The notes: generated from the sequence alone by a model not told the origin. A stretch of 64,000 bases of DNA from a virus (IMGVR_UViG_3300017691_000006:1-64000); one strand, 5' to 3'; counted from the first letter of the stretch, positions 16,802-50,256 are shown. Numbers and translations are program-made.

Positions 16802-16821
16802 GGGTTAATTCAACGGGTTGG
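16802..16821 (-). promoter_or_regulatory. Conserved motif, degenerate copy (candidate phage RNAP promoter for scaffold/capsid)
   Basis: Plus strand GGGTTAATTCAACGGGTTGG, 19/20 identical to the three perfect copies; lies just after the RNAP stop codon. Confidence 0.7.
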
Positions 16822-16823
16822 CG

Positions 16824-19800
16824 TCAACCTACCCCGTACCATCCGTAATTCTGCTCGAAGTCGTAAGGGACCTCCTCCCTCACGTCGTCTTGCGTCAGGA
16901 TGTCGTCCTCCGTCATCACCTTGCCGCCGACCACGGACCTGCCCGCAACGGGTATCAGGCCAGTGTCGATAGCTTCATCTAAGTACCTCTGGTATATCTC
17001 CTCGGGCAGTCCGCGACCCTTCATCTCGTCCAGGGTCATCTTTACCACGTTCTTGTCCAGCGTCTCTGCGTAAATCTCTCGGAGAGCCGAGCGACCGGGC
17101 AGCAGGTCGGCGATGTTGGTGAAGAACGCGTCGTGGATGGTGCTCGTGGCTACGCCCACGCGCTTGCCCCACTGGTGGAACTTCTTCACGATCACGGCGT
17201 CGTTGGAGTGGTTACCGTTCACGGCGAAGGCGGTGCGTGCCTTCGTGGGGTCGGCGATGTCGTTGATGGTACCAGCCTTGTTAAGGGTCTGGTCCCACCA
17301 GCTGGCCTCGGACTTCTGCGGGATCATCAGGATGTTGGTGACCCAGTTACCCTCCTTGTCCTTGTAGACCAGTCTCTCCTCGAACGTCTGGGTGAAGTTC
17401 TGCTCGATCACCTTGCCGTCGAAGTTGACCCACGGGGCTCGAGTCCAGCTGCCCGGGACGGCGTTCTTGTCCTTGTACAGCACGTTGACCTCGGTCGCCT
17501 TCGTCAGGTCCTTGAGGGCCGTGATGCCGGTGTACTTCTCCAAGATGTCCGGGGCGTACCCCAGGTCCAGCTTGAAGAGCCGCTTACCCACGGTCCTGGT
17601 CTCGGGAGCCTGGGTGCCGTGCAGCAGCGTGTACAGCCCGGAGTCGGGCTTCCAGTCGTAGAAGTACTTCTCCAGCAGCTGCTCGGTCAGCGGGGTGCGC
17701 GCTGGCAGCCCCAGCATCTTGGACACGGCTGGAGGCAGGGTGTAACCCTTCTTGTAGTCACCTCGCAGGGCGAAGGAGGCCACGGACTTCCAGTCCAGCT
17801 CCGCGTTCGACGGCTTGGCGTTCCCGAGGAACTCGCCGGCCAGTCGCCCGAAGAAGCGGGTGAAGTCCTTGAGGATGGGGACCTGCTCCGCCAGGTGCTC
17901 GCTCATGATCTTGGCGATGCCCTGGAAGTCGGCGGGGGTCACGATCCGCTCGTACTGCTGGCTCAGCTTGTCCACGAGGTCGCGGGTGGCCGGGTCCAGG
18001 AAGTACAGCTGCTCCATGATCTCGTCGCCGGGGTCCTGCCCCTTGTTGAAGATGTCGCGCACGTTGGCACGCAGACCTCGGAGCTTCTCAGCACCGTCCG
18101 CGTCGTAGCGCTCCACCCTGGCGATGCGGGCGTCTATCTCGTTGAGCACCTTCTGCCGGTCGGAGGCGGTGACCACCAGCGTTCCGGAGTCCTTGCCCAG
18201 CACCTTGCCGAGCTTGCCCTCTACGTTGAGGATGCCCGTCTTCTCGCCCGCGCCGTAGAACGTGACCATGTTCTGTGCCTTAGCGGCCTTCTGCAGGTCC
18301 TTGAGCTTGAGGCCCAGCTTCTCGTTCAGCACCTTGAAGCGAGGGTCGTTGTAGGTGGCTGCCGCGATCTCGTCGTACAGGCGTCGCTTCTGCGTCGTCG
18401 GCACCACGTTGGACAGCGAGGCCAGCTGCTTGTTCCTCGTCGTGAGGGCGATGATCTGTGCCCCCGAGGACGAGGCGTCCTGCTCCATGGCTAGCGCGGT
18501 CATGTAGTCGTCCAGCTTGTACAGGTTCGACTTCTCGAAGTTGCCGCGCAGGTGCTTGTTGAGCTTGGCCATCTCGATGGCGAACCGGAAGAACTTGCCC
18601 AGCTCCTCGCCGTCCACCTCGGCCACCACCGGGCTCTCCAGCACGAAGCGGAGGTCCGACGGCTTGGAGGAGATCATGGCCTCGCCTATCTCCACCAGCT
18701 CCGCCCTCCAGGCCTCGGCGATCCGCTGGCGACCCACGAAGGTGAGGCCGTCGTGGCGTCCCTCGAAGTAGTCGCTGAGGCCACCGAGGAAGGAGCCGAT
18801 CTGGTCGGTGAGGGCGTAGTAGCCGTCCACCCCCAGGGGCTTCTCCACCGAGGTGTTGAGGAACGGGCGGAAGCTCTCGCCCGACTGCGGGCTGATGAGG
18901 CCACGGTCGTAGACGCGGGCGCGGTGGTCGATGAACGGGTGGTTGCTGAACGCGACCTCCCTGCCCCTCAGCCACTGCATGGACTTGAACCGCTCGTAGG
19001 CGTCGCCGCGCGACGTGATGTACTTGCGGTAGTGGTTGAGCTCGTCGTACTTCTTCGCGCTACCGCGGTCGTCGCGGAAGTACAGCAGCTTCTCGATGAA
19101 GTCGTAGAAGTCGGGGTCGATCTTGTACTGGGTCTGAGCGGCCCAGTTGAGCGCGTCCGACAGGCTCTTGTCCACGAACTCGACGGGGAAGTCGGAGAAC
19201 GAGGAGGTCGAGGTGATCGGGATGCGGGTGTCGTAGTAGCCCAGCCCCTTCTTCACGAAGTAGGTCTTGTACCCCTCGCGCACCAGCAGCCGGTTGGACT
19301 CGTCGGTGACGGCCACGCGCAGCCCGAGCTCGATCTTGCGGTTGAGCTTGGAGTACTCTAGGATACGCGGGTCCACGACCTTGATGTAGTACGACAGCGT
19401 GTCGTAGTACGGGCCGAAGTAGGCTCCCGAGAGACGAGAGCGCATCCGTCGCTTCTGGACGGCGAACGCGTCGATCTCGAACAGGTGGCCGGCGTTCTTC
19501 TCCAGCAGCTTGAGCCCCAGGTTGTACCACTCCTTCCGCGTGCCGTTCATGTTGGCGGCGTTGAAGAGGTCGCGACCCAGGGAGACGGCGACGCTGTCCC
19601 GGTCGGGGCTGTCTGCCATGCCCAGCCGCTGGGCGAACCGCTGGTAGAACTCGCTGATCTGCTGCTCGGTCAGTCGGCTCCTGATCTTCTTGGGGATGTT
19701 CAGGTCGAGGATGTCACGGAGCTCGTTGGCGAGCTTGGGTGCCATGCTGTCGTCCCAGAGGTTCTTCCTCACGATGTTCGGGATGAAGTCTCGGGCCAGC

Positions 19801-21494
19801 TCGTCCAGCTGCGTCTCGCCCAGCACGGGGTCCACGTAGGCGTCCTTGGTCAGCTTGCGCAGCACGTCCTTGTCCTTGCGCAGCTGCGTCTCGATCGCGT
19901 CCGAGATGTTCATCACGTCGAACTTGATCTGGCTGTTCAGGACCGCCTTGAGGTTGCCCCAGGGCTCGCCGTTCCTGCGGAAGCGACCGATAGTGACGCG
20001 GAGGTTCTCGACCACCACGGCTCGCTCGTTCATGCCCATCTTTAGGGCCAGCGAGTCGTCCAGCTGGTTGATGAACTCCTTGTCCTGCTTGAGCAGGTCC
20101 GTGCTCTCGTCCACGCGCCTGAGGGCGCCCATGTAGACGTCCTGGTTGGGCTGGTAGACGCGCACGTCGTCGTAGCGCTGCGTCAGCGGGTTGTAGCGAC
20201 GCTGGTCCTCGGTCGGAGGGGTCGTCAGCACCCGGTTGCGGGTGTTGCGCTTGTTGTGCAGCAGCGTGCCACGGTAAGAGGTGATGGACAGGTTGCCGTT
20301 CAGGTCGCCCGCCTGCAGGAGGTAGTAGTCCTGGAGCGTCTTCTGCATCCGGTACAGGTCCTCCGGCATGGAGGCTCCCAGCTGCATCGCGTCGAGGCGG
20401 GCCTTGGCGTTGGCGAACTTGCGGGTGTCGCCGGGGATGACGTAGTCGCTGTCGGTGAGCTGCCTGAGCTCCTTGATGCCGAGCGAGTTGCCCTCCGGGT
20501 TCGTGAACTTGTCTACGGTGAGCTCGCCCGAGTTGAGCATGCCCACCTGCTTGTAGTCGCCTAGGTGCCTGAGCTGAACGTCCAGCGGCTGTCGGAGCAG
20601 CCAGTCGTTGTAGCTCTCCCTGAGAGGGGTCTGCCCGTCGTAGAACGCCTTCTGGGCGTCCGTCAGGCCGTTGAGGTTGCGCCGACGCACCTCGCCGAGG
20701 CCCTCCAGCTTGCCGACGTCCTCCCAGCTCTTGAACACCGGGACAGTAGTGCTCCGGCAGTTCCAGTGAGCCGGAGGTAGGTGAGAGACATCACCGACAG
20801 GGTATATCTGACCGTCTCGGTGGGCGCAGATAGGGGTGGTACGGGAGTCGAGCACAGCCACGTACTGGTAGCCATCGATAGCCTTCGCGTTGGCCTCGTA
20901 CACGGCGTGGTCTGCCTGCGCGTGCACCGAGGTGACGGCGGTCACGACCAAGGCCCTGGACTGCAGGCGCGTGATCTTGTTGACGTTGTTGCGGCGCAGG
21001 TCCAGCGCCATCTGCTCTACCGTGTCGCCGCGAGCGATGCCTGCCCGGATGAGCAGGTCGATACGCTTGCGCTCGTTGGCGGAAACGTTCGACCACCCCG
21101 AAGCCAGGGTGGTCTCTCCGTAGAGCGGTCGCTCCAGCACGATCTCCTCCGCCACGCGGCGTACGGGTCGCTGGGTGCGCCATATCTTGCCCATCGTGTT
21201 CTCGACGGACTGGTAGGCGAAGGAGAGCTGGTCGGACACGAGGTCCAGCAGCGAGCGGCGCGACAGGGAGAAAGTCTCCTCGTGCGTGCGCATCAGCTCC
21301 TGGTCCACGGCCTCCCGCAAGCGCAGGAGACCCTTGGTGGAGGTCTCCGCGCCCCGGACCAGCTCGTCCAGCCGCTCCTCGTGGCCGTCAAGCACCAGGC
21401 TCACCTTGCCGTTCACACGCCGCTCGTACAGCCGTACCATGGCCGCGCGGTCGACGATCTTGTCGTAAAGTTGAGTGTTGGCGTTGTCGGCCAT
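16824..21494 (-). CDS. SPP1 gp7/Mu gpF head morphogenesis domain fused to a T7-type single-subunit RNA polymerase (1556 aa)
   Basis: MuF signature YQYVAVLDSRTTPIC...PPAHWNCRS (aa ~205-250). RNAP motifs FIDHRARVY (cf. T7 DWRGRVY), A EQDASSSG, B KAAKAQNMVTFYG, GNHSNDA (cf. FVHSQDG), C TIHDAF. Confidence 0.92.
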   Translation of the reverse strand: MADNANTQLYDKIVDRAAMVRLYERRVNGKVSLVLDGHEERLDELVRGAETSTKGLLRLREAVDQELMRTHEETFSLSRRSLLDLVSDQLSFAYQSVENTMGKIWRTQRPVRRVAEEIVLERPLYGETTLASGWSNVSANERKRIDLLIRAGIARGDTVEQMALDLRRNNVNKITRLQSRALVVTAVTSVHAQADHAVYEANAKAIDGYQYVAVLDSRTTPICAHRDGQIYPVGDVSHLPPAHWNCRSTTVPVFKSWEDVGKLEGLGEVRRRNLNGLTDAQKAFYDGQTPLRESYNDWLLRQPLDVQLRHLGDYKQVGMLNSGELTVDKFTNPEGNSLGIKELRQLTDSDYVIPGDTRKFANAKARLDAMQLGASMPEDLYRMQKTLQDYYLLQAGDLNGNLSITSYRGTLLHNKRNTRNRVLTTPPTEDQRRYNPLTQRYDDVRVYQPNQDVYMGALRRVDESTDLLKQDKEFINQLDDSLALKMGMNERAVVVENLRVTIGRFRRNGEPWGNLKAVLNSQIKFDVMNISDAIETQLRKDKDVLRKLTKDAYVDPVLGETQLDELARDFIPNIVRKNLWDDSMAPKLANELRDILDLNIPKKIRSRLTEQQISEFYQRFAQRLGMADSPDRDSVAVSLGRDLFNAANMNGTRKEWYNLGLKLLEKNAGHLFEIDAFAVQKRRMRSRLSGAYFGPYYDTLSYYIKVVDPRILEYSKLNRKIELGLRVAVTDESNRLLVREGYKTYFVKKGLGYYDTRIPITSTSSFSDFPVEFVDKSLSDALNWAAQTQYKIDPDFYDFIEKLLYFRDDRGSAKKYDELNHYRKYITSRGDAYERFKSMQWLRGREVAFSNHPFIDHRARVYDRGLISPQSGESFRPFLNTSVEKPLGVDGYYALTDQIGSFLGGLSDYFEGRHDGLTFVGRQRIAEAWRAELVEIGEAMISSKPSDLRFVLESPVVAEVDGEELGKFFRFAIEMAKLNKHLRGNFEKSNLYKLDDYMTALAMEQDASSSGAQIIALTTRNKQLASLSNVVPTTQKRRLYDEIAAATYNDPRFKVLNEKLGLKLKDLQKAAKAQNMVTFYGAGEKTGILNVEGKLGKVLGKDSGTLVVTASDRQKVLNEIDARIARVERYDADGAEKLRGLRANVRDIFNKGQDPGDEIMEQLYFLDPATRDLVDKLSQQYERIVTPADFQGIAKIMSEHLAEQVPILKDFTRFFGRLAGEFLGNAKPSNAELDWKSVASFALRGDYKKGYTLPPAVSKMLGLPARTPLTEQLLEKYFYDWKPDSGLYTLLHGTQAPETRTVGKRLFKLDLGYAPDILEKYTGITALKDLTKATEVNVLYKDKNAVPGSWTRAPWVNFDGKVIEQNFTQTFEERLVYKDKEGNWVTNILMIPQKSEASWWDQTLNKAGTINDIADPTKARTAFAVNGNHSNDAVIVKKFHQWGKRVGVATSTIHDAFFTNIADLLPGRSALREIYAETLDKNVVKMTLDEMKGRGLPEEIYQRYLDEAIDTGLIPVAGRSVVGGKVMTEDDILTQDDVREEVPYDFEQNYGWYGVG

Positions 21495-21521
21495 CGTTCT
21501 AGTCGTCCTTGGTTGGGAGCC

Positions 21522-21809
21522 TCACAGCTGCGAGCTCCTGTGTGCGTAGGCCTCCAGACCCCACAGCTTGCGCATGGCGTCGTCCCGAGCGAACTTCTCG
21601 CCCACGGCCTTGTCGAAGTTCTCCACGCTGATGCAGGCGCTCTCGCCCGTCACCGTGAAGCCGTTGCGCGTGGTCAGCACGCAGATGGTGAGCGTCTTGT
21701 ACACGTGGAAGTACGTGTCCACGATCGCGGCCTCGACGTCGGCCAGCGTGATGCGCTTGGCGACGGCGACCGATGCGGCGAGCTCCTCGCCTGCCTGTAA
21801 CGTGCTCAT
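21522..21809 (-). CDS. N4 gp49 / Sf6 gene 66 family protein
   Basis: TLTICVLTTRNGFTVTGESACISVENFDKAVGEKFARDDAMRKLWGLEAY. Confidence 0.8.
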   Translation of the reverse strand: MSTLQAGEELAASVAVAKRITLADVEAAIVDTYFHVYKTLTICVLTTRNGFTVTGESACISVENFDKAVGEKFARDDAMRKLWGLEAYAHRSSQL

Positions 21810-22246
21810 GCCTGCTTGTCCTCCTTAGCTGGCGAATGGAAACCGATCACCCCCTTCCCGTTGTCCGCAGACTTCTTGACTACCGAATAACCGAGCTCGC
21901 GCATGGCGTGCTCAACGATGTGGTCCAGCAAGTAGGCCTCAGCCTCCATACTCGGGTTCTGCTCGCCGATGGTGCGCCAGATGAGCTGCACCGCGTGCAT
22001 GCTCTCGTGAGCGATCACCGCCGCCGGGCAGACGTCCTCGTCCTCGTGCATGTCCTCCGGGAAGGCCAGGAGCACGTAGGTGCCCTCCGGCGTCCCGTAG
22101 AAGACGGTGGTGGCGTAGCTGTCCTCGAGAGGGTTAGCCACGGGTAGGTCGTTCTTCCGCTGGAAGCGCTTGATGGCGGCGGGCGAGTCGGTCACGCCGA
22201 CCAGCACCGGATACATCAGCCCCTTCAGCCAGGCTATCTTGTTCAT
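21806..22246 (-). CDS. HExxH-motif protein (zincin-like)
   Basis: VIAHESMHAV followed by a downstream EAEAY glutamate. Confidence 0.55.
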   Translation of the reverse strand: MNKIAWLKGLMYPVLVGVTDSPAAIKRFQRKNDLPVANPLEDSYATTVFYGTPEGTYVLLAFPEDMHEDEDVCPAAVIAHESMHAVQLIWRTIGEQNPSMEAEAYLLDHIVEHAMRELGYSVVKKSADNGKGVIGFHSPAKEDKQA

Positions 22247-23934
22247 TTCGGTGGTGGCTTCTTGTCCTTAGACTTGTCCCCGCCCTGGAGCTTGGACTTC
22301 ATCTGGGTTGCGAAGTTGTCCTGCTGCTGGTCGTTCTGCTCGCGCAGCCCCACGACCGTCTCGTCCGCGTTGATCTCCTTCTGACCCTCCTCGTCGTTGT
22401 AGTCGGGGGCCAGCATGTCGTTCTGCTTCAGGATGAGCAGCCACGCCGTGCGGGGGATCAAACCGTTCTGGTACCACTCGGTCGCCAGCCTCAGCCAGTC
22501 CGCGCCCTGCGGCACGGGGTTGAAGTCTGAAGACAGCTCGAAGTCGATCTCCGAGGGCTTGAGCTCCAAGTCGTAGTGCCAGTTCACCATGAAGCAGATG
22601 ACCGCCCGCATGGTGTTGGAGACCTTGGTGTTCAGGGCACCCAGCTGTGCCGTCTGCGTCGCGTTCCTCAGCTCCAGCGCCACGCCAGACTGGTCGCCCG
22701 TCTCCGGGGCCAGCATGCGCACGCCTAGCTTCGCGATCTCCTCGTAACCGGCGGCGATCGCCAGCTCCATGTCCTTGAGCGCCTCGGTGGGCGTCTTGAG
22801 GACGTCTGCCGTGTCGCCCTGCTCCAGGTGGAGCCAGGTGCCGAGACCGCCCTCCACGACCTCGTCGAACTTATCGTCGGACATGTTCGAGGAGATGACG
22901 GGCGTGTAGGTCGCCGCGCCGTACATGAGGTGGTTGCGGCGGGAGATCTTGTTGTAGAGCGCGATCTCCTTGTTCACGATCGCCATGAGCATGGGCTCGT
23001 CGCGGTCGATGGAGCCGTTCAGGGGCCAGGCGGGGATGATGTCGATCTCCTCGTCCCTGATCTTGACCGGGACGGTGTCGACCAGCTGGAAGACCGGCTC
23101 TCCGCCGAACTTGACCTGCTTCTGCCCGCCGACGATCTCCACCGAGTCGGTGCTGTCGTCGACCTTGAAGATGCGCACGCGGTACTTGCCCCGCTGGTCC
23201 AGCTCGTGGACCCACACGGTGGGCACGTACTTGGGGTGGAACTCGTGCTTGTCGTTGTCGTAGACCTCGGTGTGGCCCTTGACGATGACGCGGTCCAGCA
23301 CGGTCCTGCCCTTGGCGTCGGTGCGGGTGCGCGTGTTGATGACGCTCTCGCCCGCCACCAGGACGGGGTACGGCCTGGGCTCCTCGCCCTCCTCGTACTC
23401 CTCGTCCTCGCCGACCTTGGGGTAGTCCACGAACAGCCAGGGAGCGGAGGTCTGCACCTCCTCCCACAGGGCGTCGTCCAGGAAGGCTGACAGCGCGCTG
23501 TCGTCCTTGCCGAACTCGTGGATGATCCAGCGGGCGGCGTCCTCCTGCTGCTCCTGCGGCATCGAGTCCGGGAACTTGATCGTGGGCTGCTTGCGCAGGA
23601 GACCGCCGACCAAGGTCTTGGCGAACTGGGAGGTGATGCCGGGCAGCTCAGCCTCGGCCTTGTAGAAGGCGTACTGGTCCTGCCGCATGGAGGGCGAGAA
23701 GGGGATCAGCAGGTTGGTGAAGCCCACCGTGTCCAGGTGAGAGTCGTAGTCCTTGACAAACTGCTCGCCCCTGCACACGGCCCTGCTCTTGCGCCACACG
23801 CCCACCAGGGACGCGTAGGCGGCGGAGGGGTCGGCCACCGTCTTCACCGTCTCGTGGGCGTTCGACGTCACCGCCGTCGCCTGGCGAGGTGCGAAGCCAG
23901 CGCCCTTTAGGCTCTCGTAGGTGGCCTCGTCCAC
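22243..23934 (-). CDS. Portal protein (DUF4055-like)
   Basis: 563 aa; LIPFSPSMRQDQYAFYKAEAELPG near the N-terminus; position in the head module. Confidence 0.85.
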   Translation of the reverse strand: MDEATYESLKGAGFAPRQATAVTSNAHETVKTVADPSAAYASLVGVWRKSRAVCRGEQFVKDYDSHLDTVGFTNLLIPFSPSMRQDQYAFYKAEAELPGITSQFAKTLVGGLLRKQPTIKFPDSMPQEQQEDAARWIIHEFGKDDSALSAFLDDALWEEVQTSAPWLFVDYPKVGEDEEYEEGEEPRPYPVLVAGESVINTRTRTDAKGRTVLDRVIVKGHTEVYDNDKHEFHPKYVPTVWVHELDQRGKYRVRIFKVDDSTDSVEIVGGQKQVKFGGEPVFQLVDTVPVKIRDEEIDIIPAWPLNGSIDRDEPMLMAIVNKEIALYNKISRRNHLMYGAATYTPVISSNMSDDKFDEVVEGGLGTWLHLEQGDTADVLKTPTEALKDMELAIAAGYEEIAKLGVRMLAPETGDQSGVALELRNATQTAQLGALNTKVSNTMRAVICFMVNWHYDLELKPSEIDFELSSDFNPVPQGADWLRLATEWYQNGLIPRTAWLLILKQNDMLAPDYNDEEGQKEINADETVVGLREQNDQQQDNFATQMKSKLQGGDKSKDKKPPPK

Positions 23935-29140: not shown

Positions 29141-29204
29141 GGCTACACCTCTGAGACTGCGGGCACAAAACTCCTTGAGAGCGCATCCCCGCTGTGTTAG
29201 TATC

Positions 29205-29217
29205 GTTAATCTAACGG
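29205..29217 (-). promoter_or_regulatory. Conserved motif core, degenerate copy
   Basis: Plus strand GTTAATCTAACGG versus core GTTAATTTAACGG (12/13), 65 nt upstream of the putative terS. Confidence 0.5.
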
Positions 29218-29361
29218 CCTCGGTGCAAGCCGCGTGTGGCTGACCCCAGCGTGCGGTCCCGTCGCTCTCCTCCCTATGTACGATCCGTGGACCCTCTCGG
29301 GTACGATCCCTCAGCGAGAGGGTGCTGACCCAGGGTACCCTCCCCTAGCCTCCTCTATCAG

Positions 29362-29389
29362 TATATAGATATATTATATATTTGTTATA
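29362..29389. other. AT-rich tract (26 of 28 nt A/T)
   Basis: TATATAGATATATTATATATTTGTTATA in an otherwise GC-rich genome. Confidence 0.9.
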
Positions 29390-29446
29390 CCCTATACCTA
29401 CCCTACCCAGAGGGGGATAGAGGGGCCTTACGGCCGGGAGGCGGCT

Positions 29447-29469
29447 CAGGGTTAATTTAACGGGTTGGG
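29447..29469 (-). promoter_or_regulatory. 23-bp conserved motif, perfect copy (candidate phage RNAP promoter)
   Basis: Plus strand CAGGGTTAATTTAACGGGTTGGG, identical at 50187 and 50234. Confidence 0.75.
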
Positions 29470-29512: not shown

Positions 29513-29534
29513 GCCAAAAAATAAATAAGGTAGG

Positions 29535-29595
29535 AGCCCCTCCGGGCACACCATTCCAGCCCGCGAGGGACCAGAACGATGTGCCCGGAGGGGCT
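29535..29595 (-). terminator. 16-bp perfect inverted repeat closing the accessory block
   Basis: AGCCCCTCCGGGCACA ... TGTGCCCGGAGGGGCT; on the minus strand followed by CCTACCTTATTTATTTTTT. Confidence 0.7.
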
Positions 29596-39421: not shown

Positions 39422-39864
39422 GCCTCGAATACCTTGTTCAGGGGCGGGTGGTCCTCGCCGTCGAAGTAAACGGAGATACCGGTCTCCAGCAGCCAGCCGG
39501 CTCCGAAGCCCATGGCCTGGGAGAAACCGTAGGCGCGCTGGCGGAAGGCGTCGCGGTCGAACGCCGTCATGTCGTCGTGAAGCGCCTGCAAACGTGACAA
39601 GAACTCCCTGTCGCTGCCCTTGTACTCCTCGTTCATGTCGACCTGCAGCCGATCGGCGACGGCGGGGAGGTGTTGCAGCAGCTTGACCGCTGTCATCGAC
39701 GGCATGGTCTGGGTGACCAGCGCCTCCTCCTCCGTCAGCAGCCAGCCGACCGCGCACCGGCGCTCGCCGTCCTTGTACACGCAGGAGCCCGTCTTGCCGA
39801 CCGCGCGGGCGTTCTGCTTGAGGATGTTGTAGACGGCCTTGTTGAATACGAACTGTCTGTTCAT
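39418..39864 (-). CDS. Paralog family A, copy 1
   Basis: FNKAVYNILKQ...CAVGWLLTEEEA...FLSRLQALHD...GFSQAMGF. Confidence 0.75.
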   Translation of the reverse strand: MNRQFVFNKAVYNILKQNARAVGKTGSCVYKDGERRCAVGWLLTEEEALVTQTMPSMTAVKLLQHLPAVADRLQVDMNEEYKGSDREFLSRLQALHDDMTAFDRDAFRQRAYGFSQAMGFGAGWLLETGISVYFDGEDHPPLNKVFEA

Positions 39865-40047
39865 GGTGTTGTTCCTACTTGAGGGCGTTTGAGACGACGG
39901 CGTTGACGTACTGGCTCTCGCTGCTGCTGGCGACGAAGCGGGCGTTGGCCCAGCTCCGTAGGTCCTGCAGAGCCTGCTGCTGTCGCGCGTTGGTGGCGAT
40001 GAGCTCGACGACGTCGACCTCGACCTCCTCGCTGGCGATCTTGACGA

Positions 40048-40437
40048 TCACTGGGCGTTCTCGAGGATGTAGTCGCCGATCTCCTCGAAGCTCTTCTGCT
40101 CGTCGTCGTTCATGCGGACGAAAATCATCATCGAGAAGCCCATGTCCGTGAGCAGCTGGTCCACAGCGTTTGGGTCGGAAGCTTGCTCGCGGTGCGTGCG
40201 GTGCTGCACGACCACCGGCGCGCCGAGGTGTGACACAGCCAGCACGTCCAGGCAGCAGTGCGCGGTCGCCTTACCGTCCTCGGTGCGGTGACTGTTGTTC
40301 CAGTTGCCGCGATTCTGCTCGAACTTACCGCTCTTGAGGTCGGCAGCCCACCTCTCCGCGATCTTGCGGCTCTCGGTCTTCGGCACGCAGCTGTCGATAC
40401 GGAACCAAGCTGCGATCTTCTTGAGGATGTTCTTCAT
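40048..40437 (-). CDS. Paralog family B protein
   Basis: DLKSGKFEQ...CCLDVL...MNDDEQKSFEEIGDYI. Confidence 0.65.
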   Translation of the reverse strand: MKNILKKIAAWFRIDSCVPKTESRKIAERWAADLKSGKFEQNRGNWNNSHRTEDGKATAHCCLDVLAVSHLGAPVVVQHRTHREQASDPNAVDQLLTDMGFSMMIFVRMNDDEQKSFEEIGDYILENAQ

Positions 40438-40706
40438 GGGGTCTCGCTTGATGAAGGGTTGCCCTCCCACGGGATTGCGAGAGGGCGTGTGGTCGTCAGG
40501 CCGGGGCCATCGTCTGTTGGGTGTCGCGGAACTTCTCGACAGCGTCGCTGGCGAAGCCCATCGGGTCGGGCATGTCCAGCTCGCCGGCGGTCAGCAGGGC
40601 GTTGTTGAACACCTGGCTCTCGATCTCCTTGATCTTGTTGTTGTTGAAGCGCCGGAACTCGTTGATGCCCCGGTCGAACGTCGCGCGGTCGTTGAAGTCG
40701 AACATG

Positions 40707-41300
40707 TCAGCGGCGACCCGACGAGAATGACGACGAGCGGAAGCTGCTCGACGACGAGTACGAGGGGCGGCTGTACGACGAGGACGAGCGGTACGAGCTG
40801 GTGTAGCTCGGGCGGCTGTAGGTGGTCCGGGTCGTCGTGGTCGTGCGCGAGTAGGAGTTCGGCGTCACGACGCGCGAGGTGCTGCCGTCGCTGTTGAACC
40901 GCACCGTCGACGCCTTGTTGACGTAGGGGCTGCGGTAGGTGCTCGGGTTGGCGATGCGGGTCACCGAGCGGTACGAGGCCGGCGAGCGGTGGATGATCGT
41001 GGTCTTCTGCGACACGATCGTGCGGTAGTTCTGGCGGTAGTAGTCGTGGCGCACCGGCGGGCGGTAGCCGCTGTAGTTCGGCGTCGGCTGCAGGTAGGTC
41101 TGTCCCGAGCCCATGCGGCCGATCATGTAGCCGGCCATGCCGTAGAGCAGGTACTGGCTGACGTCGCCGCCCGCGTTGCTGTACTGGCGGCACTCCGCCG
41201 GGTTGGTCGCCGCTGCGCACTGGTCACCGCCGCCCATCTGCGGGCCGCAGGCGGTCAGGGTCAGGACGGAGGCGACGGCTGCGATGATGATCTTCTTCAT
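40707..41300 (-). CDS. Lipoprotein with Ser/Arg/Tyr-rich tail (YgiB/DUF1190-like)
   Basis: MKKIIIAAVASVLTLTA-C lipobox; C-x7-C; LLYGMAGYMIGRM; low-complexity C-terminus. Confidence 0.65.
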   Translation of the reverse strand: MKKIIIAAVASVLTLTACGPQMGGGDQCAAATNPAECRQYSNAGGDVSQYLLYGMAGYMIGRMGSGQTYLQPTPNYSGYRPPVRHDYYRQNYRTIVSQKTTIIHRSPASYRSVTRIANPSTYRSPYVNKASTVRFNSDGSTSRVVTPNSYSRTTTTTRTTYSRPSYTSSYRSSSSYSRPSYSSSSSFRSSSFSSGRR

Positions 41301-41327
41301 GTGATGGTCTTCCTTGTAGCTTGAGGT

Positions 41328-41762
41328 TCAGAGGGCGATGATGCGCGGGTTGCAGACCCAGGGCTCAGCGCCGGGTCGATCGCACAGGTTCTGCAGTTGC
41401 AGCAGGATGCTCTCGGCGGTCTCGAGGTCGTACGCCTCGACGCCGTCGATGTCGAAGTTCTTCTCGCGGGTGACGTCGTTCATCAGCGAGTAGTTGCACT
41501 CCATCGAGAAGCTGTAGGAGCAGGCCGCAGCGTATACCGTCTTCCCGTTTTCGGACTGGTCCGTGAAATTGGAGGCGACATCGGCGGCGACCAGGTACTT
41601 GTTGCTCTCGGAGTAGGGGATGTAGTCGGCCGCCGTGATGACGATCTCCTCGTGCTCCGAGACGACCTCGACGGGGTGGCGGCGAACGTACAGCCAGACG
41701 CCGACGAAGCCGAGAAACAGGAGCGCGGTGGCGAAGAGCATGATCAGAGTCTTTGCGTGCAT
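41328..41762 (-). CDS. Membrane-anchored hypothetical protein
   Basis: N-terminal TM helix. Confidence 0.55.
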   Translation of the reverse strand: MHAKTLIMLFATALLFLGFVGVWLYVRRHPVEVVSEHEEIVITAADYIPYSESNKYLVAADVASNFTDQSENGKTVYAAACSYSFSMECNYSLMNDVTREKNFDIDGVEAYDLETAESILLQLQNLCDRPGAEPWVCNPRIIAL

Positions 41763-42673
41763 GGTGTCAGTAGTCCTTGCGTGCGAGTTGGGTGTGGGTG
41801 TAGGAGCGGACGGCCCGCAGCACGAGTATCTCCTTGCCCGGCATGAGCTTGGCGATACGCTGTGCCTCGGCGTCGGCCTTGTCGAGGTTCGGCTGGCGAA
41901 CCTTCGGCTTCTCGCCGTCGGGGTTGAACACGAAGTACGTGCCCTGGCCTCCGCGCGTCAGCACCTTGCGGGTAAACTCGTTGTTGACGTCGTAGAGCGT
42001 GGCGGAGAGGGTCCCGCCTCCGCCGTGTAGCGGCCAGCGCAGCTCGTGGTTGGGCGCGATCATCGGGTTCTTACGCAGGTCGTTGACCAGCTCGCCCAAC
42101 AGGTCGTCGCCCACGAACAGCTTGTGGGTGATACTGAGGTTATGGTCCATCAGAGCACCCAGTAGGCGACCGACTGCAGCACGAAGCCGGCCAGCAGGGT
42201 GTAGCGCACGATGTTGTGGTGCCGCAAGCTAACGTAGCGGCGGTGCCAGCCCTCGTGGTCGGTGACGCTGTCGAACTCGATCTCCGCCGAGTGCCGGTCG
42301 GCGTGGGCGACATGGACGGTCACGCCGTCGTGCAGCACGTGGTCGGAGCGGCGCTCGTAGGCGTCCCGGAAGTAGTCGCGCTCCTTGATGATCACCTCGG
42401 TCGCGGCTGCGGCGACCTTGATGCCCTGCGCCGCCTCGTCCAGGCGGAGCGTGGTCTGCGCGATGGCAGCGCCCATACGGTCGCGGTGCAGCTGGTAGGC
42501 CAGCGAGTTGATGCTGATGGACCGACCCATCTGGTCGATGAGCATGTAGGACGGCACGCCGGTCTGCACCAGCTTGTCGTTGCTGTAGACGTTGTAGTGG
42601 CCCTTGTCGGCCTCCTCGATGCGCACGGTGATGTCGCCTGCGATCAGGTAGCGGGTGGTCTCACGGGTCATGT

Positions 42674-43659: not shown

Positions 43660-43688
43660 AAGCCAGTTTAGCGTCGTGGCTCAGGACG
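43660..43688 (-). ncRNA. H-type pseudoknot motif, copy 2
   Basis: CGTC-CT-GAGCCA-C-GACG-CTAAAC-TGGCTT. Confidence 0.6.
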
Positions 43689-43782
43689 TCACAGCCGTTT
43701 GCGTGCGGCATTTTACTCTGGTATCGTTTGGGGTTGTTGAACTTACTTCATGATAACCTCCTAGGTGTTTCATATAAGATGC

Positions 43783-44076: not shown

Positions 44077-45046
44077 TCAGCCGCACCTGCACGGGAGCGG
44101 ACATCTCGCGGATGTCCAGCTCCGCCTCGATGGCGTGCTTGAAGTGTACGCCGTGCACCGTGATGCGGTAGACCTCGGGACCGACCTCCTTGATGAGGCC
44201 GTACTTCAGCAGCTCCTGGATGGAGCGCGCCGACGGGGTGTTAGCCATGACGAGCTTCTTCTCGCCGGTCGCCAGCACGTCCTTCTGGAGGTCAGTCACC
44301 GTGAAGGGCTTGTTGATGGGAGCCCTGCTCAAGCACAACATCGTGCCTAAGCTAACCTTGTTGATCAATGCGTGGAAACCGGTAAGCATATTCATATCTC
44401 CTCTTGGATCAATCGACCTCAATGATGAGGTTCTCGTGGCCATGTTTGTGGAGGTAGGCCACCCTGTCCTCGTAGCTCATGTTGTCGAGCTCGGCCTGGT
44501 TGGACCGTCGAACGAAGGCGTTGACTTGTTTCTCTGCGAAGGCGTTCACCATCCGCTGCAGGTCCTGGGGCATGCCGCCCCGGATGATCTGCTCCATCAC
44601 GTCCTGGCTGATGTCGTCCCGCGCGTGAAGGCTCACGTTCGGTGCGATCATGCCGCGGACTCTCTCCTCTACCTCAACTGCCTGTCTGTTCAACATACCA
44701 CCCCACTCCACTCAGTTTGTTGTTGCTGCGGTTGTACTTGCACTATCCCACTTGGGCTTTGTCCTTTCATATGGTGTTACTGCAGCATATGCAGCTGCGA
44801 CTCGGCCCGCATGCGCAGGTCGAGAACGGACTCCACCTCCGACGCCTCGCGGCTCGGGGTCGAGATGTTGAGCACGGGAGGGCCTGCGGGCTTGTGGTCG
44901 ACCTGCTGGTCGCCCTCGCTCGCCGTGCGTGTCTTGGTGAACTGGTCGAGCTGCAGCTCAGCTACAACTCCGTTGATGGCGACGACCGCGCCGGGATCGA
45001 ATTGTTCGAGAAGGTGAATCAGCTGGTGGTTGCGCATGTTGCCTGC

Positions 45047-45082
45047 ATTTAAAAGGGAGTGACACCCGAAGGCATCACTCCC
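45047..45082 (-). terminator. Intrinsic terminator
   Basis: GGGAGTGATGCC-TTCG-GGTGTCACTCCC-TTTTAAAT. Confidence 0.8.
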
Positions 45083-45369
45083 GTAGTTGTCGTCAGAGCG
45101 TCTCGAACACCGCCTCGAGCTCGTCCTTGAGCGGGTGGTCCGCTGCGACGGCTGCGCGCTGGAACACGTCGCGTCGCTCCTCGGAGCCCTCGACCCAGGG
45201 CACCAGCACGGACATGATCGAGGCGACGTCGCTCGCCCTATTCTCCGGGTGGTCCCGGAAGTGACGCGTCATCACGGTCACGGCGTTCTCGCCGGCGTCG
45301 GAGACCACGGCCTCGTCCACCTTCGGCGACACCGCCGCGTCGTCGATCACGATGTCGTTCGCGTCGTTT

Positions 45370-45621
45370 TCATCGGCCATTCTTCTTGTCTTCCTCTTCG
45401 AGTAGCTTCCTGAGGTCCTCGTAGCCGCCGACGTGGCGACCTCCCATGAAGACCTGTGGTACGGTGGTGAAGCCGGCGCCTACCAGGAACTCCTTGAACT
45501 TGGAGTCCTGGCTGTAGTTGAACAAGCCGACACCCACACCGCGGCTAAGCAGAAGGTCCTTAGCCCTGTCACACCACTCACAGTTGTCGCGGGTGACAAT
45601 CACGGCACAGTTGTTATTCAT
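45370..45621 (-). CDS. Glutaredoxin
   Basis: TRDNCEWCDRAK, TVPQVF, VGGYEDL. Confidence 0.9.
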   Translation of the reverse strand: MNNNCAVIVTRDNCEWCDRAKDLLLSRGVGVGLFNYSQDSKFKEFLVGAGFTTVPQVFMGGRHVGGYEDLRKLLEEEDKKNGR

Positions 45622-45825
45622 TTTCGAGCAGTTCCTGCAGTGTTCGTCGAGGCCGTACTCGCGGAGTCCGCATGGTCCACAGGCCATACTTGTTTGCCCT
45701 CCTTGATGTCGAAGATGGTCGCGCCCTCCCTCAGCGCCTTGGCGTACGAGAGGGCGGCGCAGTACAGTTTGAATGCCGTTTGGCCGTAGGTCCAGTCGTC
45801 GTCGTGTCCGGAGACGCGGTAACGG

Positions 45826-46332
45826 TTAACCTTGAACAAGCGGCCTCTCCCTGAACTTCTCCCACAGGGGCCACAGGTCGACGACCTGGACACCCTGCTC
45901 GCGAGCGTAGCGTACGGTGTACTCGGAGCCGCCGGTGCCGCTCGATAGCGACAGCAGCTTCTGGCTCTCGTCGACCATCTGCCGGTTGCGCTTGAGGTAC
46001 GCGTCGTCGGTGAAGGTGGGCGACGTCACCGTCACCGTCTCGCACCTAGCCAGCAGCCGCCTGTAGCGCGTCTGCGCGTCGGCTGGCCAGTGGCGCTCCT
46101 GCCCCTCGAACGGCACCCTGGCGTGCACGGGGATACCCAGGACGACGCAAGCGTCGCACACCGCCTGGTCCCAGCCCTGCGCCATGCCTTGCACGACGTG
46201 GAACGCCGTGTCCTGCTCGGCGACCTCGTTGTTGAGGATCAGCCGCGCGAAGGCGTACAGCTTGTTGCGGCCCTCGATGGAGTAGCCGCCCAGCTTCTCG
46301 GGCCTGTGACCCGTCACGGAGAGGCGCATCAT
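45826..46332 (-). CDS. YspA/DUF1273 SLOG-family protein
   Basis: VTGHRPEKLGGY, QGMAQGWD, KRNRQMVD, GGSEYTVRYA. Confidence 0.85.
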   Translation of the reverse strand: MMRLSVTGHRPEKLGGYSIEGRNKLYAFARLILNNEVAEQDTAFHVVQGMAQGWDQAVCDACVVLGIPVHARVPFEGQERHWPADAQTRYRRLLARCETVTVTSPTFTDDAYLKRNRQMVDESQKLLSLSSGTGGSEYTVRYAREQGVQVVDLWPLWEKFRERPLVQG

Positions 46333-46712
46333 GTGCGCTTCTGCCTCACGCCGCCGGGAACGCACCGGTCGATGCGCTCCTTGAGGTCGTCGTAGGTGAT
46401 GTTCACCATCAGCGACTTGCCGGAGACCATCGTGATCTCGCAGTCGGTGGCGCCGGGATAGATGAACTCGACGTTGTCGAAGTTCACCATCGTCATCTTG
46501 CCGGTGTAGCGGAGGGGTAGCTCAATTACCATCGTAGATGCACTCCATGCTCATGAAGTGGCGGTACAGCATGATCATCTTGCCGCCGTGGAACAGACGG
46601 AGCACGCCCCTGTCGTCGCAGCCGTGGTTGTCGACAGTGTGCTCGGTGACGCGGTTCTCGTGGGTGACCTTCACCTTGTAGGGCTTGGTCTCGCGGATCA
46701 TGATATTCAAGC

Positions 46713-47420
46713 TCATAGGAAGATGTCCTTGGCACTTACCTTGGCAGACACAGGTTGCTTCTGAGCGACCGGCTCGGGCTGCCGTACCGGCTCCTTCGGG
46801 GTGAAGAAGCTCATGTCCAGGTCGCTGTAGTCGACGGTGGCCGCCACCGCCTTCTTGACCTCCTTGTACGCGATCACCCAGTCGGGCTGCGCGCGGTTGG
46901 TCCAGTTGTTGCCGTTGATCTTCTCGGCCAGGTAGTAGGCCCGGTACGCCTGCATCGTGTTCTCCCGGTCCATCGGGTCACGCTTGTAGACGTCCGGCAC
47001 GCATGCTTTCGGCGTCGTGTGGTTGAGGATGACGAACTTGCTCAACCAGTACTTCATGGCGGGCACGATCACTCGCGCTCGCTCGAACTTGTCCGGGTTG
47101 CCTGGGTAGCGATAGTCGTACTCGTTGACCATCGCTCGGAGGTGGTCCACCAGCCAGCTCACGTTCCCGAGGCCCTCGTTCAGCCAGAGGGCGGCGGGGT
47201 GGTTGGCGTGGGACAGCCCCGTCCAGGGCACGTCCGGAGCCTTGTCGGGCACCAGGTCGGTCTCCACGAACTGGTGCGTCTCGTCGTCGTGCGGGCCGGT
47301 GTATCGGCTGGCCCACACGGACAGCAGCTGGCACGATTCGGATATCATTTTGATGATATGCCGGTCATGCAGCGCGATAGCTGCTTTTGCAGGGTCTTTA
47401 TCGACGTAGAATATATTCAC
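46713..47420 (-). CDS. Pyrimidine-dimer DNA glycosylase (DenV-like)
   Basis: MNIFYVD.DP...A...D.H..KM..ES.QLLS ... HANHP..LW. Confidence 0.8.
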   Translation of the reverse strand: MNIFYVDKDPAKAAIALHDRHIIKMISESCQLLSVWASRYTGPHDDETHQFVETDLVPDKAPDVPWTGLSHANHPAALWLNEGLGNVSWLVDHLRAMVNEYDYRYPGNPDKFERARVIVPAMKYWLSKFVILNHTTPKACVPDVYKRDPMDRENTMQAYRAYYLAEKINGNNWTNRAQPDWVIAYKEVKKAVAATVDYSDLDMSFFTPKEPVRQPEPVAQKQPVSAKVSAKDIFL

Positions 47421-47923
47421 AGGCCAAGTAGCTCCATCTGGCTGGCTTTGGCTTTACTGTAAGCTGCCTCAGCCTCCTCGGGCGTGTTGAAGTGCCCGAG
47501 ATTCTTCTTTTGGAAAGTTGCGCGCCACTTGGCTGTAGAGGGTACGAAGGACACACCTAGTATTCCGGTGAGACTGTCCTTGTGAGCAACCACGTTGAGC
47601 ATGTTGCCAGCTCTCGTGACCAACCGCAGGTTCTCAATGCGGTTGTTGCTCTTGTTTTGATCTATATGATCTATGTCCATCCCTGCAGGGATAGGTCCGT
47701 TGTGCATTATCCAGACCAGCTGGTGCACTCTGAACTTCTTACCCAGCAGGGTGGTCTGTACGTAGCCTTGCCCGTCGTCGCTGCCTACCCGGCTACCAAC
47801 CTTAACACGATTACTGGTAGACACGAGCCAGAACAGCTCTCCTTCCTTGTACTCAAAGAAGTAGGCTAGGTCCTCAGGGCTGAACTGCACCCTGGGGCGG
47901 CACGTGGTTGTTGTGGTATTCAC
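47417..47923 (-). CDS. HNH homing endonuclease with AP2-like C-terminus
   Basis: HQLVWIMHNG...IDHIDQNKSNNRIENLR; GV.F......W.A...LG.F.T.EEA; visibly lower GC than flanks. Confidence 0.9.
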   Translation of the reverse strand: MNTTTTTCRPRVQFSPEDLAYFFEYKEGELFWLVSTSNRVKVGSRVGSDDGQGYVQTTLLGKKFRVHQLVWIMHNGPIPAGMDIDHIDQNKSNNRIENLRLVTRAGNMLNVVAHKDSLTGILGVSFVPSTAKWRATFQKKNLGHFNTPEEAEAAYSKAKASQMELLGL

Positions 47924-48440
47924 TGCTGTGCACCGGGCCGTCCTTCGTGTGGAAGAACCACGCCTTCTCCTTGCGGAGGGTGGCGAACAGCGAGAGGCAG
48001 TCCTTGGACGTGTACACGATCGCGTGCACGGACTCGGCGCTGCGGAGGACGACGTCGCCCGCGCTGCGCCACTCGGTCGAGATCAGCTTGTTGGTGCCGG
48101 CCTCGTACATCGCCTCGCAGTACTTGCCGCGCACCACCAGCGTGGCGTTGGACCACGGGTGGCAGTGCGGGTCGTCCGCGTCGCTTCGGGCGTACTCGTG
48201 CAGGTAGACGTTCTCCAGCTCGGAGTGCATCCACCCGGAGAAGCCCAGCTGCTTCGCGGGGTCGTCGTAGATCGGGACGACGGCCTTTCGGGCCAGCATC
48301 CAGCGGTTGATGTACGCCGAACCGTTGCGCATGATCGGCTGGTTCGGCGCGCGGTCCCGCATGACGGCCTCGCAGGCGGAGCGGATCAGTCCCGTCAGCT
48401 CGGGCGTCACCGCTTGCGGCAGGTAGCGGAAGTCATTCAT
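47874..48440 (-). CDS. Cupin-like protein
   Basis: YLHEY...DPHCHPW...VRGKYCE...VHAI. Confidence 0.65.
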   Translation of the reverse strand: MNDFRYLPQAVTPELTGLIRSACEAVMRDRAPNQPIMRNGSAYINRWMLARKAVVPIYDDPAKQLGFSGWMHSELENVYLHEYARSDADDPHCHPWSNATLVVRGKYCEAMYEAGTNKLISTEWRSAGDVVLRSAESVHAIVYTSKDCLSLFATLRKEKAWFFHTKDGPVHSSEYHNNHVPPQGAVQP

Positions 48441-49049
48441 TGTCGTTCTTCTCGCGCTTGATCTTCTTGAACTCGAGGCGACGGTCCCGGTCGTACTCCT
48501 CGTTGCTGATCAGGTTCGCGGCCATCTCCCTGACGGTCTCCGGGTCCCGCTTGAGGGCGGGAGGGAGGCTGTCCGGGTCCGGGTGCTCGATGACCTTGAG
48601 CGGGTGCTCGGCCAGGATGGCGTCGCGGGCACGGCGCTGCACCTGGTTGTCGGTGGACAGGAAGTAGTTGTCGAACTTGTCCTTGCCCGGCTTGTCGTCG
48701 TGGAGCTTGCGCGTGTTGGACACGATCTTGTCCGAGATGTCGCGCAGCTCCTGCATGTGGTCTTCCTGCATCTAGCCCTTCCTGTAGCGTTCGGACGCAC
48801 GTCCCTTGAAGGTGTTCTTGTACTCGCGCTCGAAGTCCGCAGGAGACATCTCGAAGTGCCTGAAGTACGGCCTCATCGGCGGGTGCCAGCCCTCTGCGCG
48901 GCCCTTGAGCGGGCTGACAGCTGGACCGCTGGGCTTCACCTTGGCGAGACGCTCCGCCAGCATGACGTCCTGCATGCAGTACCGCATGATGTCCTGCATG
49001 TGGGACTTACCGCCCCCGCGAGGCTGGTAGAGGATCTCCGAGCAGGGGC

Positions 49050-49346
49050 TCAGAACGTGTAGTAGCTGCCCCCGAAAGGGTCGTTCGTCCGGAGTGCCTC
49101 CTCTGCCTTGTTGAGGGCAGCGTCGACCTCTGCCTGGCTCTCCAGGCTCCTGTCGTCTCCGGCGAAGTTGTCGAGCGCCATGCGTGCCTGTACCAGCTTG
49201 GCAGCGGCCTCCTGCGCGTCGATAGCGGCCTTGTCGAGCGCCTCGATCTTCGCGATCAAGGTCTCGCGCTTGCCTGCCAGCTGCTGCGCGCGCTGCTTGA
49301 GCTTCGCAATGTTGTTCTCGTCACGGACTTCCTGGTAGATGCTCAT
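49050..49346 (-). CDS. Hypothetical coiled-coil protein
   Basis: 98 aa with RBS. Confidence 0.6.
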   Translation of the reverse strand: MSIYQEVRDENNIAKLKQRAQQLAGKRETLIAKIEALDKAAIDAQEAAAKLVQARMALDNFAGDDRSLESQAEVDAALNKAEEALRTNDPFGGSYYTF

Positions 49347-49366
49347 GGTGTAGTTCCTCTGGTTGC

Positions 49367-49407
49367 AAATTTAAAGCCCACCCCGCCGGTTAGGGCAGAG
49401 TGGGCTT
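49367..49407 (-). terminator. Intrinsic terminator-like hairpin
   Basis: AAGCCCACTCTGCC-CTAACC-GGCGGGGTGGGCTT-TAAATTT. Confidence 0.7.
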
Positions 49408-49510
49408 AGAGCGCGGTACGGGCGCACCGTGTGGTAGACGCGTAGATCAACCTTGCTGGTGTCGTTTAGTGCGCGGCCTGCTAGTGCGACGCACCCTTAC
49501 GGGGCATGGT

Positions 49511-49540
49511 GGTGCAGTTTATAGTCATGCTCCAGGACTA
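49511..49540 (-). ncRNA. H-type pseudoknot motif, copy 3
   Basis: TAGTC-CT-GGAGCA-T-GACTA-TAAAC-TGCACC. Confidence 0.6.
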
Positions 49541-49548
49541 ACTCGGGC

Positions 49549-50139
49549 TTAGCCCTGCGCTTCGGCAGCGGCTTCCTTCTCGGCCTTCTGCGCCGCCATC
49601 TTCTGGCGGTACGCCTCCAGGCCGGCGGCTGCCTGCGGCGAGACCTCGCGCTTCGGCTTGCCCGCGTCGAACGACGTCAGGATGGCGTCCTTGTTCGCGT
49701 AGACGAGCTCGGCGAGCTTCTCGTTGCCCTCGGCGACCTCGGTCAGCGCTGCGGTCGCTGCGGCGCTCTGCTCCTCGTCCGTCATGCGCTTGACCGACGG
49801 CCAGCGGAACGACGCCTTGAACGCGTCGACGTTGTCCACGACGAACGCGGCCTGGCGGTCGCCGGCGAGGGTCGTCGCGATGTAGTCGAGCGCCTTGGTG
49901 AGCGCGGTGTTCTCGGACTTGGTGACGCGCTTGATCTTGCCGGTCTCGAGTGCGACCTCGACCTTCTCGCGGTTCTCGACCAACCAGTTGGCGATCTTCT
50001 CGTTCGCCTCACCGGCGGGCAGTGCAGCGCGCAACGCCGCGACGATCTGCGGGCGACGCTGGTAGTCCTGGGCCTCGGCCTTGGTCTCGAAATAGATGCC
50101 GTCGACGACGTAAACGGGCTTCAGTTCGTTCGATGCCAT
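49549..50139 (-). CDS. Hypothetical protein, first gene after the tandem motifs
   Basis: Ala-rich, extremely biased codons suggesting high expression. Confidence 0.75.
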   Translation of the reverse strand: MASNELKPVYVVDGIYFETKAEAQDYQRRPQIVAALRAALPAGEANEKIANWLVENREKVEVALETGKIKRVTKSENTALTKALDYIATTLAGDRQAAFVVDNVDAFKASFRWPSVKRMTDEEQSAAATAALTEVAEGNEKLAELVYANKDAILTSFDAGKPKREVSPQAAAGLEAYRQKMAAQKAEKEAAAEAQG

Positions 50140-50186
50140 GTGAATCAAATCTCTCTCAGATGCGGGCCGCAGGTGCGCGACCCTTT

Positions 50187-50209
50187 CAGGGTTAATTTAA
50201 CGGGTTGGG
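50187..50209 (-). promoter_or_regulatory. 23-bp conserved motif, perfect copy
   Basis: Plus strand CAGGGTTAATTTAACGGGTTGGG. Confidence 0.75.
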
Positions 50210-50233
50210 GTGCCCGTCGCTCAGCCCTGTGAA

Positions 50234-50256
50234 CAGGGTTAATTTAACGGGTTGGG
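50234..50256 (-). promoter_or_regulatory. 23-bp conserved motif, perfect copy (47 bp from the previous one)
   Basis: Plus strand CAGGGTTAATTTAACGGGTTGGG. Confidence 0.75.

Follow-up and report, generated by a model that had tools for sequence, protein, structure and literature searches.

The viral DNA considered here, IMGVR_UViG_3300017691_000006:1-64000 (the window, 64,000 nucleotides (nt)), is the first 64 kb of a 76,750-bp IMG/VR virus record with an estimated completeness of 97%; the remaining 12.7 kb were also searched. The genome is that of a siphovirus, with a 3246-amino-acid (aa) tape measure protein and genes for terminase and portal, and it also encodes a DNA polymerase, a primase-helicase, a ribonucleotide reductase, a ligase and an exonuclease. 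Every gene with coding signal lies on the minus strand (G+C content at third codon positions, GC3, ~0.9). A megablast search of 14 kb against 50,697 phage records returned no match. Our subject is a 23-bp motif that recurs ahead of gene blocks, together with two RNA polymerases (RNAPs) encoded by the phage. One, the MuF-RNAP, is fused to a MuF head protein domain; the other is a smaller T7-like enzyme, referred to as the non-virion RNAP (nvRNAP), whose gene lies past the window (Table 1). The original prediction had taken the motif for the promoter of the MuF-RNAP.

Read in gene sense (minus strand), the reported motif, here called class-1 to distinguish it from a second motif, class-2, is CCCAACCCGTTAAATTAACCCTG, with a 16-nt core CCCGTTAAATTAACCC. 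The 23-mer is identical on the plus strand at 29447, 50187 and 50234, as had been claimed, and 100 dinucleotide shuffles of the sequence produced no match. The variants noted earlier at 16802-16821 (19/20) and 29205-29217 (12/13 of a 13-nt core) were found again, and a search over the full genome added two copies past the window, at genome 64337-64355 (one mismatch) and 74717-74735 (exact), giving six core sites and one degenerate copy in total. The degenerate copy, which may be a weak version of the motif, occupies the spot of a perfect second tandem copy in relatives; the 29447 site is of a 'composite' type, followed by a C-rich box and an AT-rich tract, and relatives carry tandem copies at the same position. 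All copies in the genome are intergenic. Since all genes lie on the minus strand, the shared orientation of the motif within this genome is less informative than it appears.

Table 1. Coordinates of the class-1 and class-2 motifs, the polymerase genes and the associated features (window numbering unless marked 'genome')
Feature	Position	Strand	Remarks
Class-1 motif, exact	50234-50256	-	Upstream copy of a tandem pair (47 nt spacing) ahead of a conserved 199-aa gene (49549-50148); syntenic in relatives
Class-1 motif, exact	50187-50209	-	Downstream copy of the tandem pair; 40 nt before ATG 50148
Class-1 motif, exact	29447-29469	-	Heads the block of TerS-like 146-aa gene, terminase, portal and MuF-RNAP
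Class-1 degenerate copy GCCGTTAGATTAACGA	29203-29218	-	4 mismatches to the 16-mer core; 65 nt before GTG 29140
Class-1 variant CCCGTTGAATTAACCC	16800-16822	-	3 mismatches to the 23-mer; directly past the MuF-RNAP stop codon; heads the scaffold/capsid/tail block
Class-2 degenerate copy GCATCTTATATGA	43770-43782	-	Only class-2 copy within the window
MuF-RNAP fusion, 1556 aa	16824-21494	-	MuF domain, residues 145-250; T7-fold polymerase domain, ~640-1556
T7-like nvRNAP, 746 aa	genome 65029-67269 (L111:1029-3269)	-	Past the window by 1 kb, at the end of the early region
Terminator-like long G+C-rich hairpin, then T-run ttatttattttttgg	29515-29595	-	Read from the sequence; upstream of the 29447 motif, with ~45 nt in between
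Predicted 5' leader of the capsid operon	16690-16799	-	~110 nt; strongly structured (first 45 nt, -23.9 kcal/mol, z = -5.0)

Related genomes provide a broader view of the motif. A MuF-RNAP query of IMG/VR yielded 170 confirmed relatives, from which 80 loci with 55-65% identity were kept. The 16-nt core recurs within 900 nt after the MuF-RNAP gene in 59 of 65 loci, and within 12 nt of its stop codon in 42 of the 65. Five complete relatives have four to seven class-1 sites apiece, nearly all intergenic and co-oriented with the genes, and tandem copies are common. Over the oriented related loci the motif lies on the gene strand 74 times and on the other strand never; on the question of shared orientation the relatives are thus decisive. 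The syntenic sites precede a conserved 200-aa gene and the DNA polymerase, the conserved 199-aa gene, the TerS-like gene and terminase, and scaffold and capsid. Conserved bases reach 19-20 (RAM-CCCGTTAAATTAACCC-T/A), with variation mostly in three central bases, and the core is unchanged in DNAs of about 28% to 66% G+C (63% in the present genome). All 75 of the further IMG/VR stretches with the exact 16-mer encode proteins of this phage family. Constancy over such a range of base composition fits a phage-encoded reader, and a host-specific reader cannot explain it. The distant MuF-RNAP contigs L226 and L227 are partial; the lineage of L226 has a repeated motif of its own, TCGACCCATTACCCAAT, at 2657, 3928 and 3963, including a tandem pair ahead of the terminase block.

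The sequences flanking the motif add to this picture. Stem-loops start 1-7 nt past the core at 46 of 63 distinct sites, and their stems covary; at the capsid-operon site they begin 1-2 nt after the motif and take different paired forms across relatives (AGGTGT...ACACCT, AGAACA...TGTTCT, AAGCTA...TAGCTT). Upstream of the 29447 copy lies the terminator-like hairpin listed in Table 1, and a relative, G004, has a similar hairpin and T-run upstream of the motif. Folding of the regions upstream of all class-1 sites revealed no systematic terminator, clear ones being confined to a few sites. Scans for sigma-70-like promoters and simple terminators gave no enrichment over shuffles, and the terminator scan missed the 29515-29595 hairpin.

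Overall, the class-1 motif is very probably a phage-polymerase promoter of new sequence. This part of the original prediction stands: the motif is invariant over a wide range of G+C and strict in its orientation, it heads syntenic blocks, often in tandem, and it is accompanied by 5' stem-loops and occasional preceding terminators, from which we infer promoter activity. A host sigma-factor promoter with TAAATT as its -10 element is a very improbable alternative. TAAATT fits the minimal -10 pattern, TANNNT, but 16-20 bases identical within and between genomes of ~28-66% G+C are unlike host promoters, there is no conserved -35 element, and sigma-70-like sites are not enriched.

The motif might instead serve another phage factor, either as a DNA operator akin to the mycobacteriophage stoperators or as a sense-RNA element for processing or antitermination, formed by a GUUA-NNU-UAAC hairpin. 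The centre of the motif is indeed an 11-bp palindrome, as had been pointed out; the sole stem change seen, A to G, would leave a G-U pair in the sense RNA, and an RNA element would likewise be intergenic and co-oriented. Against this, the stem has only four A/U-rich pairs without compensatory double changes, and the conserved flanks are asymmetric (CCC...CCC). No other conserved motif able to serve as a promoter lies between the upstream terminators and the class-1 sites, and a non-promoter function would leave two phage polymerases without promoters. No helix-turn-helix or repressor family occurs among the conserved proteins scanned, and no repressor or integrase family in the ~40 proteins that this partial scan covered, ~60 small proteins lying outside it. 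Taken together, these points make a role other than that of a promoter improbable.

Two enzymes are candidates for reading such a promoter. The MuF-RNAP has the catalytic motifs of a complete single-subunit polymerase, invariant in sets of 19 and 37 homologues: DxRxRxY, motif A (D1006), motif B (K1069, K1072, Y1080, G1081) and motif C (H1454, D1455). Profile and sequence searches against the PDB gave marginal T7 matches only (E ~0.003-0.05), so that fold comparison was needed. The structural model (predicted local distance difference test, pLDDT, 82.7; predicted template-modelling score, pTM, 0.80) matches T7 RNAP with Z ~30 and a root-mean-square deviation of 3.5 A over ~545 residues, compared with Z ~21 for N4 mini-vRNAP, and it has a well-modelled beta-hairpin at the position of the specificity loop. 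By this model the MuF-RNAP is a T7-fold enzyme and not an N4-like one. It is the probable virion-delivered polymerase of the phage. Its polymerase domain is rare, with only 152 matching representatives among 1.84 billion proteins. Directly upstream of its gene, at 21522-21809 (-), lies a 95-aa gene that matches Pfam Phage_gp49_66 (E = 3e-21), a family named after N4 Gp49 and Sf6 gene 66; in N4, gp49 adjoins the virion RNAP gene gp50, which would place the 95-aa gene and the MuF-RNAP in the same neighbourhood as in N4.

The nvRNAP is a canonical T7-like enzyme by sequence (Pfam RNA_pol, E = 9e-65; T7 RNAP, E = 5e-45). T7 RNAP exceeds it in length by 137 aa, and the nearest podovirus enzymes share only ~27-30% identity with it. 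Genes of both polymerases are interrupted in some relatives: the MuF-RNAP reaches 1775 aa in L081/G005, in EBPR siphovirus 1 (L108) an HNH endonuclease gene splits it in two, and the T7-like RNAP of G007 is in two pieces ~500 nt apart (39595-42345). These interruptions look like mobile introns or inteins. The G007 genome also has 69-bp tandem repeats at both ends (L233:1-280, L237).

The class-2 motif, GCG(G/C)AAAAA-N3-GTATCTTATATGA, heads the hypervariable early genes and is identical in relatives from low to high G+C. Besides the degenerate copy in the window, the genome has three exact copies past it, at 73694, 69088 and 68899. Motif order was counted in the 40 related loci that include 6 kb to either side of the nvRNAP gene: 74 class-2 sites lie upstream of the gene and one downstream, and class-1 is the first motif downstream of it in 31 of the 40 loci. 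In 23 loci both classes occur upstream, and in 22 of these class-1 sits outside the whole set of class-2 sites. Because class-2 precedes the nvRNAP gene, and the initial supply of a polymerase cannot come from its own promoter, class-2 would be read by an injected enzyme or by the host, and class-1 would then be left for the T7-like nvRNAP. Class-2 may thus be the promoter of either the injected MuF-RNAP or the host polymerase.

The same arrangement is seen in the roseophage DSS3_VP1 (Naomviridae; NC_055826.1, L109/L110), which has the same gene order, encodes both polymerases (31% and 35% identity) and carries its two classes of motif at syntenic positions. Its annotated 'head morphogenesis' protein gp108 is the MuF-RNAP. 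A T3-like 23-mer, ATAGGGTGCGTTAAA|GAGGGG, stands at the syntenic block heads, and only a class-2-like motif lies upstream of the RNAP gene. The late motif of DSS3_VP1, ATAGGGTGCGTTAAAGAGGGG, is T3-like and 23 nt long, is present in 12-14 copies, all on the gene strand, and shares only CGTTAAA with the class-1 motif. The paper that describes the Naomviridae mentions neither RNA polymerase nor promoter motifs (PMC8323127).

Changes in the motif were compared with changes in the specificity loop, taken as the segment that HMMER aligns to T7 residues 739-763. The genome of the relative G006 (IMGVR_UViG_3300042292_000345; L229-L232) is complete, with repeats at its termini; it lacks class-1 sites altogether but has three exact copies of class-2. 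Within the family its nvRNAP stands apart (47.5-52% identity, compared with 54-64% for others), and a single-protein IMG/VR query with the G006 polymerase matched only itself. Motif-bearing genomes all keep the nvRNAP loop YGPP.G.R.ST.Y..NT.Q...(C/S)F; in G006 a 12-residue deletion and a different sequence affect this loop, including the equivalents of R746 and N748. The MuF-RNAP of G006, by contrast, shares 70% identity with the enzymes of G002 and G005, genomes with seven perfect class-1 sites, and the hairpin at its specificity-loop position is conserved in all eight genomes, G006 included. In G007, CTGTT replaces CCGTT at three class-1 sites, alongside substitutions in the nvRNAP loop; a de novo search for a late motif in G007 had returned ribosome-binding sites only, before the genome was found to carry this variant. 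Altered nvRNAP loops are also paired with absent or variant class-1 sites in L261 and L266. Motif and nvRNAP loop thus appear to change together in G006, G007 and L266, with L295 as an exception, a correlation drawn from few lineages. The G006 genome has no gaps between the RNAP gene and the replication genes.

On these grounds the class-1 motif is likely to be the middle and late promoter of the phage's own 746-aa nvRNAP. This enzyme is preferred because of the logic of the cascade, the synteny with DSS3_VP1 and the loss of the motif in G006 together with the specificity-loop segment of its nvRNAP, the MuF-RNAP loop being intact. In the programme that we envisage, the capsid-packaged MuF-RNAP or the host polymerase would read the class-2 motif at the head of the hypervariable early genes, the last large one of which would supply the nvRNAP. 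The nvRNAP would then initiate at class-1 ahead of the DNA replication genes, of a block led by the 199-aa gene and made up mostly of unnamed genes, of the terminase, portal and MuF-RNAP genes, of the scaffold, capsid and tail genes, and of a gene for a CHAP-domain, endolysin-like protein, five blocks in all. The 5' end of the transcripts would probably coincide with the 3' edge of the motif or lie a few bases beyond it, and a stem-loop would open many of them.

The assignment to the MuF-RNAP that was first proposed is probably wrong, with a second T7-like RNAP 1 kb past the window and a class-2 motif heading the early genes. In that scheme the capsid-delivered enzyme would be responsible for middle and late transcription, that of the MuF-RNAP gene included. 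It is a complete T7-fold polymerase with invariant catalytic motifs, a good model and a beta-hairpin in the right place, and the most constant class-1 copy directly follows its gene. Nevertheless, G006 keeps this polymerase at high identity to those of motif-rich genomes, loop conserved, yet lacks the motif. The few molecules injected would have to drive all late genes, and for the T7-like RNAP there would remain only the early-region motif that precedes its own gene, a bootstrapping problem that is clearest in DSS3_VP1. We therefore consider the MuF-RNAP an unlikely reader of class-1.

It is important to point out that several observations weigh against the nvRNAP as the reader of class-1, or against the support claimed for it. 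Because the related loci lack phylogenetic independence, the support is overstated by the site counts. A single clear loss lineage, G006, carries the polymerase assignment, and the whole early and replication module of this lineage is more diverged, so that linkage instead of cause may be at work; de novo searches for a replacement late motif in this genome found ribosome-binding sites only. L295 has a canonical nvRNAP loop but no class-1 site within 6 kb on either side. In most genomes a class-1 copy lies just upstream of the early region, which a simple cascade does not require. Finally, compared with the T7, T3 and SP6 promoters, the motif is without a conserved AT-rich -4 to -1 segment, a fixed +1 G or a GGGAGA start, and its three central bases vary.

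As stated earlier, the motif resembles neither T7 nor SP6 promoters, though an exact 10-nt run, AATTAACCCT, is common to it and to positions -17 to -8 of the T3 promoter consensus; this run appeared in 138 of 200,000 shuffles. Only this upstream half of the T3 promoter matches. The initiation half of the T7, T3 and SP6 promoters (-7 to +6, CACTAWAGGGAGA) has no counterpart, as positions past the core are unconserved, and a T3 register, with +1 nine bases past the core, was rejected for want of a conserved initiation signal. In organisation the systems are alike: short, near-identical, co-oriented sequences precede middle and late blocks, some in tandem, the cognate polymerase (here the proposed nvRNAP) is T7-like, its gene is immediately followed by the first copy, and stem-loops abut the promoter. 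The T3 annotation has 23-bp promoters that abut RNase III stem-loops, one of them directly after the RNAP gene. The present phage differs from the Autographiviridae in being a 77-kb siphovirus with its long tape measure protein.

Coliphage N4, in which transcription passes from the gp50 virion RNAP (vRNAP) to RNAPII and on to the host RNAP, is similar in having a packaged single-subunit RNAP and a second, smaller, early-encoded one, early promoters confined to the early region and a gp49-family gene next to that of the packaged polymerase. Class-1 sites, in contrast, head replication, packaging and capsid blocks, and unlike in N4 the late genes also carry a phage motif. A review of N4 argues that many promoters cannot be served by the few molecules injected (PMC4496689). 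The vRNAP promoters of N4 are G+C-rich hairpins with stems of 5-7 bp and a 3-nt loop, centred at -11, whose non-conserved stem bases covary (PMC4496689). The possible stem of the class-1 motif, GTTA/TAAC, has four A/T-rich pairs, and no compensatory stem change occurs among 22 core variants, so that covariation neither supports nor excludes a hairpin. N4-like hairpin recognition, raised earlier as an option, is accordingly a weak idea, and it gains nothing from the MuF-RNAP, whose fold is that of T7 RNAP.

A further parallel is the Thermus phage P23-45, a siphovirus whose virion polymerase, a fusion with a structural protein, reportedly transcribes the gene for the second polymerase of the phage (10.1101/2022.12.01.518664). 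The P23-45 polymerases are of the two-barrel type and the fusion partner is the tape measure protein; in the present phage both enzymes are of T7 fold, with a MuF head protein as the partner. N4-like virion RNAPs have been said to occur only in N4-like phages (Iyer et al. 2017, PMC5512222). In the searchable literature we found no description of a MuF-fused single-subunit RNAP, of the class-1 or class-2 motifs, or of a two-polymerase programme of this kind.

If the assignment to the nvRNAP holds, a compact 746-aa T7-type polymerase with a new promoter of 16-20 bp would be an attractive part for orthogonal expression, its promoter being constant in phages whose hosts must differ greatly. A long-tailed phage would then rely on a head-protein fusion polymerase at the start of infection, before a switch to a second phage polymerase. 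A further step, which we put forward tentatively and with rather less confidence than the nvRNAP assignment, is that the family carries two mutually orthogonal T7-fold polymerase/promoter pairs, the ejected MuF fusion reading GTATCTTATATGA and the 746-aa enzyme reading CCCGTTAAATTAACCC. Were this true, capsid delivery of a T7-fold polymerase would be documented for the first time outside N4-like phages, and the two pairs would offer a ready-made expression system with two channels, whatever the host. Members of the family are common in metagenomes, as the IMG/VR relatives of the MuF-RNAP attest, and include the deoxyuridine-DNA (dU-DNA) roseophages of the Naomviridae.

Some further features of the locus deserve mention. 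The scaffold gene most likely starts at ATG 16689 and not at 16797, because GC3 rises abruptly at codon 37, from ~0.5 to 0.9, and that ATG is preceded by an AGGAAG ribosome site; the gap after the MuF-RNAP gene would then measure ~134 nt instead of 26 nt. The predicted capsid leader contains two hairpins with fixed TGT-centred loops and covarying stems, at 16785-16773 (xxxT-TGT-Axxx) and 16717-16707 (xxxC-TGT-Gxxx). Such hairpins stand just upstream of the scaffold ribosome site and are kept in relatives, the first type also in DSS3_VP1 (gtaagTTGTActtac), and may be a translational operator or a processing site. An Rfam search returned tRNA only, and a tRNA-Trp (CCA) gene lies at 12829-12902 (-) within the tail-gene block. 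Between the two motif copies near 29 kb, the stretch 29219-29446 (-) contains a C-rich box (GCCGCCTCCC...CCCCTCT) as well as a tract very rich in A and T. The copy at genome 74717 is likewise followed by a similar box, as are the 'composite' copies of relatives, and the region could be a transcription-activated origin or a packaging region.

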